Source: Escherichia phage ev_rybdy3. Taken from it: a DNA stretch of 64,000 nucleotides. A model generated the notes under the pieces. The model saw nothing but the letters and a program-made list of their open reading frames with translations, had not been told where the DNA came from and did no database searches. Shown here in pieces: positions 2,355-3,940 of this stretch (position 1 is the first letter of the stretch; each line of letters begins with the position of its first letter). The stretch lies in sequence record PQ819470.1; one strand, given 5' to 3'. Position numbers and translations under genes: made by a program.

Positions 2355-2900
2355 TTAAACAGCAGGTGTTACACCAGTAAAAGTGCATGTTGCATTGATA
2401 GACGGAGTGGCTGTCAAACTTGCTTGAACAGTAACTTCGCCACTTGCAGCAGCATCTAATTTTAACGAATTATTAGCGCTTATTGTACCAGCTTCTGCGG
2501 GAGTTACAACAAGTGTGTAATCATCAGCAATAGAATTAGTTACAGTAAACATGGTGTTGAAGTTAGTGGTAGTACCACCTACTTTACCTGTAATTGGCCC
2601 ACGACTCACAATAGTAGGAGCAGGAGCAACAATTTCAGAAATGATTGCTGTACCAGAAACACCTTCTAAAGTTGCAGTAATAGATACATCAGTGGATTGA
2701 GACGCACTCGGAGCAGTATACAAACCCGACTGAGTGATAGAACCACCTCCTGTTACTGACCAAGTAAAGCCAGTTGTTTCGGTAGAACCATCACTTTTCT
2801 CCGCGCTTGCAGTGAACTGCCGAGTAGCCCCTGTCTCTAGACTTGCTAAAGACGCAGGGCTAACAGTTACACTGTCTACTGTTACGCCGCCACCTTTCCC
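2355..2900 (-). CDS. Ig-like (Big_2-type) extension ORF in -1 frame of capsid gene; probable frameshift fusion product
   Basis: Frame open from 2960 to 2355 with no ATG near its 5' end; overlaps capsid 3' end; slippery heptamer G GGA AAG at 2900-2894 in capsid frame; translation VTVDSVTVSPASLASLETGATRQFTASAEK... is Big_2-like. Confidence 0.6.
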   Translation of the reverse strand, partial: GKGGGVTVDSVTVSPASLASLETGATRQFTASAEKSDGSTETTGFTWSVTGGGSITQSGLYTAPSASQSTDVSITATLEGVSGTAIISEIVAPAPTIVSRGPITGKVGGTTTNFNTMFTVTNSIADDYTLVVTPAEAGTISANNSLKLDAAASGEVTVQASLTATPSINATCTFTGVTPAV

Positions 2901-3940
2901 GCAGCAGTGAACAGAACGCCGGAAGCATACGGGTTGCGGTGACGCAGACCAACTTCCATCTCAATCATCCACTTCTCGTAAGAACCATCTTTCGCCAGTT
3001 CAGTACGTTTCGGAGCACGCAGAACCATCTGGGTCCAGTCAGCGCTACGGAAGAAGTAAACTGCATCGGTAGGCATCCAACGGTTAACGATGATTTTGTA
3101 GCTCTGGCCCAGCGGGTCAGTGATGCTGTTAACTTCGTAGATGAACTGCTTGGTGTTCTCAAAGATACGCTTACGTGAACCCTGAGTATTTTCTTGCAGA
3201 CCAGCGAAGATCTTAGCATGAGCCGGGTTAATCATGATGATATCTGCTTCAGAACCAGCGGTATACAGTTGCAGAGTCATATCAAAGATATCAGCTTCGT
3301 CGAAACCAATGTTAGTGGTCGGGTTAGAAGCATTCTGTGCAACTTTAACAGTTACTGCACCAGTATCCGGGTCAGCAGGACCATTCTTGGTTTTGTCAAC
3401 AACGCCACCAGCCAGACCACCGTGAGCACACAGGAACTGGAATGCACCAGTCTTACGAGCTGCATGGGTGTCATTCAGGCCAACAACAGCAGGATCAGTT
3501 GCAGAGTTAGTCAGGTACTGGTCAGCCAGAACGTCGGTACGAGCCTGACCGGACAGAAGGATTTTCTCGAGGTCACGCTTGATCTCTTTACCTTTCTTCT
3601 CCAGCTGATACATCAGTTCACGACCACGACCGTAGTTAGCGGTGGTGTTAGCGGTGTCAGAAACACGAACAACCTTACGCAGAATCTGAGTAACGTTAGA
3701 CTTGATAACAGTCGGTTTCATTTCGCCGTCTTCAGCACGAGAGCCTTCGACGTGTGCGTTATTACCATCAACGCTTGCCAGTGCATCGGTCTGCCAGCTA
3801 AAGATAGTCTGGTTGATAGACTCTTTACCGGTCATGGATACGAACGGGGTATCCTGAGGGGACAGAACAGAAATCCAGTTAGCAAAAGAAAGTTTTTTAC
3901 CATTCTGGTCATACGATACAAATAAAGTTGGATTAGCCAT
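2882..3940 (-). CDS. Major capsid protein
   Basis: 352-aa ORF directly downstream of scaffold gene; strong codon periodicity; capsid position in head module. Confidence 0.7.
   Translation of the reverse strand: MANPTLFVSYDQNGKKLSFANWISVLSPQDTPFVSMTGKESINQTIFSWQTDALASVDGNNAHVEGSRAEDGEMKPTVIKSNVTQILRKVVRVSDTANTTANYGRGRELMYQLEKKGKEIKRDLEKILLSGQARTDVLADQYLTNSATDPAVVGLNDTHAARKTGAFQFLCAHGGLAGGVVDKTKNGPADPDTGAVTVKVAQNASNPTTNIGFDEADIFDMTLQLYTAGSEADIIMINPAHAKIFAGLQENTQGSRKRIFENTKQFIYEVNSITDPLGQSYKIIVNRWMPTDAVYFFRSADWTQMVLRAPKRTELAKDGSYEKWMIEMEVGLRHRNPYASGVLFTAAGKVAA

Follow-up and report, generated by a model that had tools for sequence, protein, structure and literature searches.

Frameshifting that adds immunoglobulin (Ig)-like domains to phage structural proteins is an established theme (Atkins et al., PMC5009743). 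For the phage group around phiEco32, a frameshift in the capsid gene has been known since 2008 and is published for phiEco32, SU10, Paul, Privateer and YF01. This report concerns the corresponding site of Escherichia phage ev_rybdy3 (sequence record PQ819470.1), which lies at the 3' end of the major capsid protein gene on the minus strand of a stretch of 64,000 nucleotides (nt). The whole stretch is called the window in the following. A sequence-only reading of this DNA had suggested a probable −1 programmed ribosomal frameshift that extends the capsid protein with an Ig-like sequence. Reading-frame phase, conservation, coding bias and predicted fold support this proposal, and a frameshift of this kind very probably operates in the major capsid gene of this Kuravirus.

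Among the published members of the group, SU10 was described by Mirzaei et al. as having a frameshift 'as in phiEco32', with a mass spectrometry (MS) entry '9+10, 55.4 kDa' (PMC4281155). Privateer shows two capsid bands in sodium dodecyl sulfate–polyacrylamide gel electrophoresis (SDS-PAGE), and its minor long form was detected by MS (PMC7881722). According to the same paper, the shifted product had also been seen in phiEco32 and SU10 (PMC7881722). According to the YF01 paper, the whole Kuravirus-like group is characterized by the −1 slip at GGGAAAG and by a C-terminal extension that is Ig-like (PMC9965538). In GenBank, Paul and Privateer have a joined coding sequence (CDS), and the Paul entry carries the note 'Frameshift at GGGAAAG; Frameshift in PhiEco32...'. 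The window shows essentially no difference from phiEco32, SU10, Paul and YF01; gene, heptamer, phase and Big_2-type extension are all the same. Its extension comprises 179 amino acids (aa) compared to 178 aa in phiEco32, whereas those of Paul and YF01 reach about 545 aa with extra repeats. Privateer, a Proteus phage (Privateervirus, Grimontviridae), is more distant. It shares the SU10_MCP capsid family and the same C-terminal GGGAAAG −1 site, but in Privateervirus the heptamer abuts the TAA stop (spacer of 0 nt) and capsid identity to the window is 57%. The Privateervirus extension is unrelated in sequence to that of Kuravirus and consists of I-set (E-value 3e-10) and Big_2 (E-value 1e-18) domains. 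A modest hairpin starts 6 nt after the Privateer heptamer.

Outside this group, the gene pair G/GT of phage lambda resembles the window at the level of the site. The heptamer G GGA AAG is identical, the same Escherichia coli tRNA-Gly and tRNA-Lys(UUU) are used and a 0-frame stop follows just downstream. At lambda G/GT, GGGAAAG shifts about 3.5–4% (PMC3296357; PMC9965538), and shifting is raised in tusA or mnmA hosts (PMC3296357). The lambda product, however, is a tail chaperone absent from the virion rather than a capsid subunit, and its extension is not Ig-like. Gene 10A/10B of T3 and T7 resembles the window in the −1 shift near the end of the major capsid gene and in the minor longer subunit (about 10%), and the T3 extension is Ig-like. 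The slip site of T3 is C CCA AAG. Both phages differ from the window in their unrelated capsid family and in their slip sites, and the extension of T7 is not Ig-like. T7 gene 10 uses a G_GU-type slip site and depends on a distal 3' element (PMC5009743). Hoc of T4 and RB49 also places tandem Ig-like domains on a phage head, for which weak carbohydrate or mucin binding has been proposed (survey of Fraser et al. 2006; bacteriophage adherence to mucus (BAM) model). Hoc is a separate protein, bound non-covalently to the capsomers, whereas the domains of the window phage would be fused covalently to some subunits by recoding.

The window belongs to a Kuravirus, i.e. a phiEco32-like coliphage, as determined by a megablast search with the minus strand of positions 2300–3960 that matched 125 phage records. 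The top match is Escherichia phage ev_rybdy8 with 100% identity over this region. DNA identity to phiEco32, ES17, DE5, SU10-like and other Kuravirus phages is 96–98%. The major capsid protein gene occupies positions 2882–3940 (minus strand, 0 frame) and encodes a protein of 352 aa and 38.7 kDa with the HK97 fold. It belongs to the SU10_MCP family (PF17236), which is matched with an E-value of 9e-77 and 258.8 bits, above the curated threshold (cutoff 24.1). The SU10 major head protein (PDB entry 7z45) is matched across residues 1–352 with an E-value of 9e-236.

The last codons of the capsid gene (minus strand) are ...TTC ACT GCT GCG GGA AAG GTG GCG GCG TAA, with the TAA stop at positions 2884–2882. 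The slippery heptamer G GGA AAG (positions 2894–2900, minus strand) lies over Ala347-Gly348-Lys349 in the exact X XXY YYZ phase, gcG GGA AAG. The sequence-only reading was right about the capsid stop at 2882, about the canonical heptamer at 2900–2894 and its identity to the lambda G/GT site, and about the −1 frame that is open from 2960 to 2355 with no early start. Its distance of 14 nt between heptamer and stop does not hold, as 9 nt separate the end of the heptamer from the stop and the first base lies 16 nt before it. G_GGA_AAG is rated highly shift-prone in E. coli, where the single tRNA-Lys(UUU) re-pairs from AAG to AAA (PMC5009743).

The bare string GGGAAAG occurs in eight copies in the window compared to 6.9 expected. 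It is not enriched and is uninformative on its own. The position of the capsid heptamer in its reading frame is a different matter. The 70 open reading frames (ORFs) of at least 100 aa in the window contain 42 in-frame X XXY YYZ sites, and the capsid heptamer is the single one that opens a long −1 ORF. There the −1 frame overshoots the 0-frame stop by 175 codons, with 16 codons for the runner-up site. Furthermore, the codon usage of the heptamer is exceptional. The capsid gene has 26 glycine codons (GGT 19, GGC 6, GGA 1), and the sole GGA is the one inside the heptamer. A single capsid GGA at the heptamer is likewise found in phiEco32, Paul, E20-1, Privateer and Cronobacter phage 009 (Csa_009). 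Selection therefore acts here on the nucleotide sequence and not on the protein.

According to the proposed mechanism, the majority of ribosomes would read ...Ala-Gly-Lys-Val-Ala-Ala-stop and thus produce the 352-aa capsid protein with the HK97 fold. A minority, while holding tRNA-Gly on GGA (P site) and tRNA-Lys(UUU) on AAG (A site), would slip back by one base to GGG AAA. These ribosomes would continue with GGT GGC GGC GTA... in the −1 frame and bypass the 0-frame TAA. The resulting product of 528 aa would consist of capsid residues 1–349, a Gly3 linker and two tandem Ig-like domains, and its translation would terminate shortly before an intrinsic terminator. Judging from the identical heptamer of lambda G/GT, the slip frequency is probably of the order of a few percent.

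Alternatively, RNA polymerase rather than the ribosome could change the frame, by slipping during transcription. For this to be productive, about six or more identical bases in a row are required. The site has runs of only three G and three A, and the exact X XXY YYZ phase combined with AAG and tRNA-Lys(UUU) corresponds to the requirements of the ribosome. Two-frame products are known to arise by transcriptional slippage as well (PMC5009743), but nothing specific favours it here and its probability is negligible. Readthrough of the capsid stop is excluded, as the 0 frame reads TAA CAG TAG.

The −1 frame is bounded by a TGA at 2963–2961 and is open from 2960 down to a TAA at 2357–2355. The extension read after the slip (positions 2355–2894, minus strand) comprises 179 codons (GGGVTVDS...GVTPAV) plus this TAA, and the reading across the site would be ...FTAAGK-GGGVTVDSVTVSPASLASLETGATRQFTASAEK.... 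The fusion proposed here corresponds to a minus-strand CDS of join(3940..2894, 2894..2355). It encodes 528 aa with a mass of 55.98 kDa, compared to 38.66 kDa for the short form of 352 aa. The fusion is thus 17.3 kDa heavier, less than the difference of about 19 kDa given in the sequence-only reading. The peptide that had been expected after the slip is Ig-like as proposed, but it has a different start, namely GGGVTVDS... with the Gly3 linker.

The substitution pattern identifies the −1 frame as coding. Substitutions in the extension fall mostly on the third position of this frame, with counts for the three codon positions of 30/27/63 in comparison to KBNP1711 and 57/52/107 in comparison to Paul. 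Upstream of the heptamer, the differences between the window and its relatives follow the 0 frame.

Current annotations imply another origin of the Ig-like sequence, in which the ORF is a separate gene with its own start and encodes a free decoration protein. GenBank lists a separate 'Ig domain containing protein' that starts with TTG 2723 in ev_rybdy8 and with GTG in phiEco32, and the cryo-electron microscopy (cryo-EM) paper on SU10 considers gp10 as possibly a free minor capsid protein lost during purification (PMC9509320). The starts themselves argue against a separate gene. The earliest ATG, GTG or TTG in the −1 frame is TTG 2723, the 57th codon read after the slip, whereas the first Ig-like domain begins at codon 5. 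Initiation at codon 57 would delete two thirds of this domain, which is confidently folded from residue 5 in the predicted structure. TTG 2723 is not preceded by a Shine-Dalgarno sequence at a usable spacing, the nearest GGAGG ending 19 nt upstream and thus too distant. The GTG taken as the start of phiEco32 gp12 (12 nt past the capsid stop) is GTA in the window. Four different starts are annotated among the phages, none is conserved and every one truncates Ig-like domain 1. The database homologues of the extension are all gene-caller products with varied internal starts (MTVSPAS..., MASL..., MSDGS...). The 57 start-less codons are still under purifying selection in the −1 frame, and a separate gene would leave the selection of the rare GGA at the heptamer unexplained. 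An independently initiated Ig-like protein is highly improbable, and the fused product of a −1 frameshift is preferred.

The comparison was extended to 16 Gordonclarkvirinae genomes: the twin of the window, phiEco32, ShigP1, Paul, SU10, KBNP1711, E20-1, ManiMatter, NJ01, MLP3, OliverMaurmann, TH34, MN05, PE006 and two contigs from IMG/VR. GCTGC-GGGAAAG is unchanged in all 16. The heptamer is also present in both Privateervirus genomes (Privateer and Csa_009), so that it is found in 18 genomes from two virus families overall. Within Gordonclarkvirinae, the nucleotides immediately behind the heptamer are variable. Heptamer and stop are separated by 9, 12 or 15 nt, and intact −1 extensions are 178–545 aa long. 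Including Privateervirus, the length ranges from 169 to 545 aa. The extension ORF is intact in 15 of the 16 Gordonclarkvirinae genomes, SU10 being the exception.

The extension of the window is predicted to be two tandem Ig-like domains. Domain 1 (positions 2631–2882, minus strand; extension residues ~5–88) is of the Big_2 type. Domain 2 (positions 2358–2621, minus strand; residues ~92–179) is a β-sandwich without a Pfam family, and homologous repeats of it are present in several copies in the longer extensions of Paul and E20-1. The AlphaFold2 model, calculated with an alignment of 18 sequences, has two β-sandwich domains and a mean predicted local distance difference test (pLDDT) score of 96.4. 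In a Foldseek search of the PDB, the best match to this model is the tandem Big domains of Leptospira LigA (E-value 1e-10). Further matches include a Big domain of LigB, Big_2-CBM56, NCAM, titin and invasin, and from phages RB49 Hoc, the Ig-like domain of T5 pb6 and the Ig-like domains of the SU10 nozzle. A sequence search of the PDB with the extension gave nothing at an E-value of 1 or below; matches were obtained by fold comparison alone.

At the level of sequence profiles, Pfam Big_2 (PF02368) matches the extension of the window with 16.9 bits and an E-value of 0.006, which does not reach the gathering threshold of 22.8. The orthologous Big_2 domain is above threshold in Paul (23.4 bits) and E20-1 (41.1 bits). 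Bacterial Big_2 proteins align to extension residues 5–88, starting at the strand V-S-V-T-V-S-P-A. The Big_2-type Ig-like character that had been read from the sequence is consistent with the predicted fold, although the Pfam match is below threshold and there are two domains instead of one.

Several observations weigh against a programmed frameshift at this site or against a role of its product, and most of the experimental ones concern SU10. Neither a long isoform nor additional density on the capsid was observed in cryo-EM and SDS-PAGE of SU10 (PMC9509320; PMC9965538). The deposited SU10 sequence (KM044272, 4041–4110) has a 1-nt insertion nine codons after the slip, GTCTACT instead of GTAACT. 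As a result, the −1 frame runs into a stop after 11 codons, and the Ig ORF comes to lie in the 0 frame behind TAA and TAG. The broken −1 frame would account for the absence of the long isoform from these SU10 data. It also shows that the extension is dispensable in culture. Possibly the insertion arose in the laboratory or by an error in sequencing, and the deposited sequence conflicts with the 2014 MS entry '9+10' of 55.4 kDa. That entry in turn is a match to the predicted fusion and not a junction peptide (PMC4281155).

The identifications of the fusion published for relatives rest solely on peptides of the extension. In the window, a trypsin cut falls on the fusion junction K349|G350, ...NPYASGVLFTAAGK / GGGVTVDSVTVSPASLASLETGATR, and yields ...FTAAGK and GGGVTVDS...GATR as products. 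A junction peptide is therefore impossible in a tryptic digest unless cleavage is missed. For the window phage itself the case is based on sequence, and detection of the protein comes from the literature on its relatives.

RNA structure provides a further point of this kind. In the search for a stimulatory structure 3' of the heptamer, as the sequence-only reading had proposed, nothing significant or conserved was found at 5–9 nt, and the fold of the 54 nt downstream has a z-score of −1.1. The stem-loop proposed for SU10, which spans the slip site, is weak in the window (z-score −0.7). A helix that closes 6 nt downstream in the minimum free energy (MFE) fold of the window was rejected as evidence, as it is not conserved in Paul-type sequences. 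An upstream Shine-Dalgarno-like stimulator of the dnaX type is not present within TTCACTGCTGC. The only conserved hairpin starts 19–25 nt downstream of the heptamer and is thus outside the range of classical stimulators. The lambda G/GT site is not known to depend on a defined structure, and a stimulator is not regarded here as strictly required.

This conserved hairpin is located in the coding sequence of the extension at positions 2810–2874 (minus strand), with its core at 2868–2815, and starts 19 nt past the heptamer in the window. The 94-nt stretch that holds it has an MFE of −37.3 kcal/mol and a z-score of −2.5. Over 13 distinct genomes, 91% of the cells are paired, compared to 31–48% in slid controls, and compensatory changes are found at two core pairs (UA/GC/AU and GC/UG). 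The model was derived from the window sequence and lies inside a coding region, so its conservation is suggestive only. The hairpin is a candidate modulator that might tune the ratio of short to long form from an unusual distance.

The SU10 data are also compatible with a real slip whose long product has little functional weight, the extension being a tolerated evolutionary leftover. SU10 with its broken extension still forms normal virions with a uniform capsid protein. Furthermore, the extension evolves faster than the capsid core, and in several comparisons the nonsynonymous codon changes are at least as numerous as the synonymous ones. A leftover is, however, difficult to reconcile with an ORF that remains intact in all but one of the Gordonclarkvirinae genomes and with the third-position bias of its substitutions. 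The domains have been repeatedly expanded or swapped (169–545 aa; Big_2 or I-set) and have not decayed, and other lineages retain a capsid-Ig isoform through other genetic means. A product of little weight is quite improbable.

A functional long form is thus the favoured reading. It would be co-assembled as a minority capsid subunit, with the Ig-like domains outside the prolate head. There the domains would probably provide weak accessory binding to carbohydrates on cell or mucus surfaces.

The gene order around the capsid gene is portal, small ORF, scaffold, capsid, Ig ORF, adaptor and tail fibre, which matches phiEco32. The extension ends just before a terminator, as had been recognized from the sequence. 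This intrinsic terminator (positions 2327–2350, minus strand) has a 10-bp stem with six G-C pairs followed by a T-run and lies 4 nt past the stop of the extension. The records of Paul, Privateer and SU10 have an annotated terminator at the corresponding place. In MLP3 (3182–3694) and OliverMaurmann (4024–4053), an HNH homing endonuclease gene is inserted between the Ig extension with its terminator and the adaptor gene. The window has no HNH gene at the equivalent place, and an adaptor-like gene (2253–1501) follows directly.

More distant relatives lack the heptamer. The capsids of Aeromonas phage 4_4572 (3912–4187) and of the IMG/VR contigs L020 (3412–3924) and L021–L023 are 57–66% identical to that of the window, and GGGAAAG is absent. 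In these five sequences the capsid gene ends with CTG AAG GTA AAG GCG/CCC TAA, without an X XXY YYZ motif. Their −1 frame lacks stops over the last 20 codons before the capsid stop and for 89–170 codons past it, and it encodes an I-set domain (E-value 3e-7) or two Big_2 domains (E-value 8e-35). The first start is codon 35 of the open frame and is located within the first Ig domain. In L020–L022, a GC hairpin is found 6 nt past the AAG (z-score −3.5 for 62 nt). Shifting at the tetranucleotide A_AAG is documented in E. coli (PMC5009743), and because of this the arrangement looks like an unannotated, non-canonical −1 frameshift at G_GUA_AAG or A_AAG. GenBank labels the Ig-like ORF of 4_4572 a 'tail protein', and a literature search for a capsid frameshift in Lahexavirus gave no result.

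A third arrangement consists of two to three tandem annotated capsid paralogues, as in Salmonella phage 7-11 (1982–4758), ECO319P1 (2992–5096) and Aeromonas phage APT65 (1069–3927). In 7-11 (585 aa) and ECO319P1 (361 aa), one of the capsid copies has an in-frame C-terminal Big_2 extension. Judged from these gene arrangements, gene duplication seems to be the route to short and long capsid isoforms in both phages.

The annotation of the Kuravirus genomes is affected directly. In the ev_rybdy8 record (PQ819471, 2580–3106), only the 122-aa ORF starting with TTG (positions 2723–2355 of the window) is annotated, as 'Ig domain containing protein', and a 158-nt 'intergenic' gap actually encodes most of Ig-like domain 1. 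Other Kuravirus records use four start codons for the ORF or label it hemagglutinin, hypothetical protein or major head protein. A truncated protein and a gap are likewise found in most Kuravirus records. A correction to a joined CDS for the 528-aa capsid isoform is due in ev_rybdy8.

ES17 is a mucin- and heparan-sulfate-binding Kuravirus that is 97.8% identical to the window over positions 2300–3960. The ES17 paper assigns binding to the tail fibre, which is said to have no relation to Hoc and no Ig-like fold. ES17 has the same capsid region and a separately annotated 'Ig domain containing protein', which is not discussed in that paper.

To a specialist the biology is unsurprising, as it is textbook recoding of the kind known from T3/T7 gene 10 and lambda G/GT. 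Beyond the single genus, it is possible, though only tentatively suggested, that an Ig-bearing capsid subunit of low abundance is under selection throughout the clade of podophages with prolate heads and SU10-type capsids, and that interchangeable genetic routes lead to it. Three such routes may exist, namely the G_GGA_AAG shift in Gordonclarkvirinae and Privateervirus, the G_GUA_AAG or A_AAG shift in L020–L023 and the Aeromonas Lahexavirus, and tandem capsid paralogues of which one has an in-frame Ig extension, as in 7-11 and ECO319P1. Phages of the group, such as ES17, are used in phage-therapy work. Ig-like domains on the surface of the head could matter for their adherence to mucus or glycans, their pharmacokinetics and their immunogenicity.

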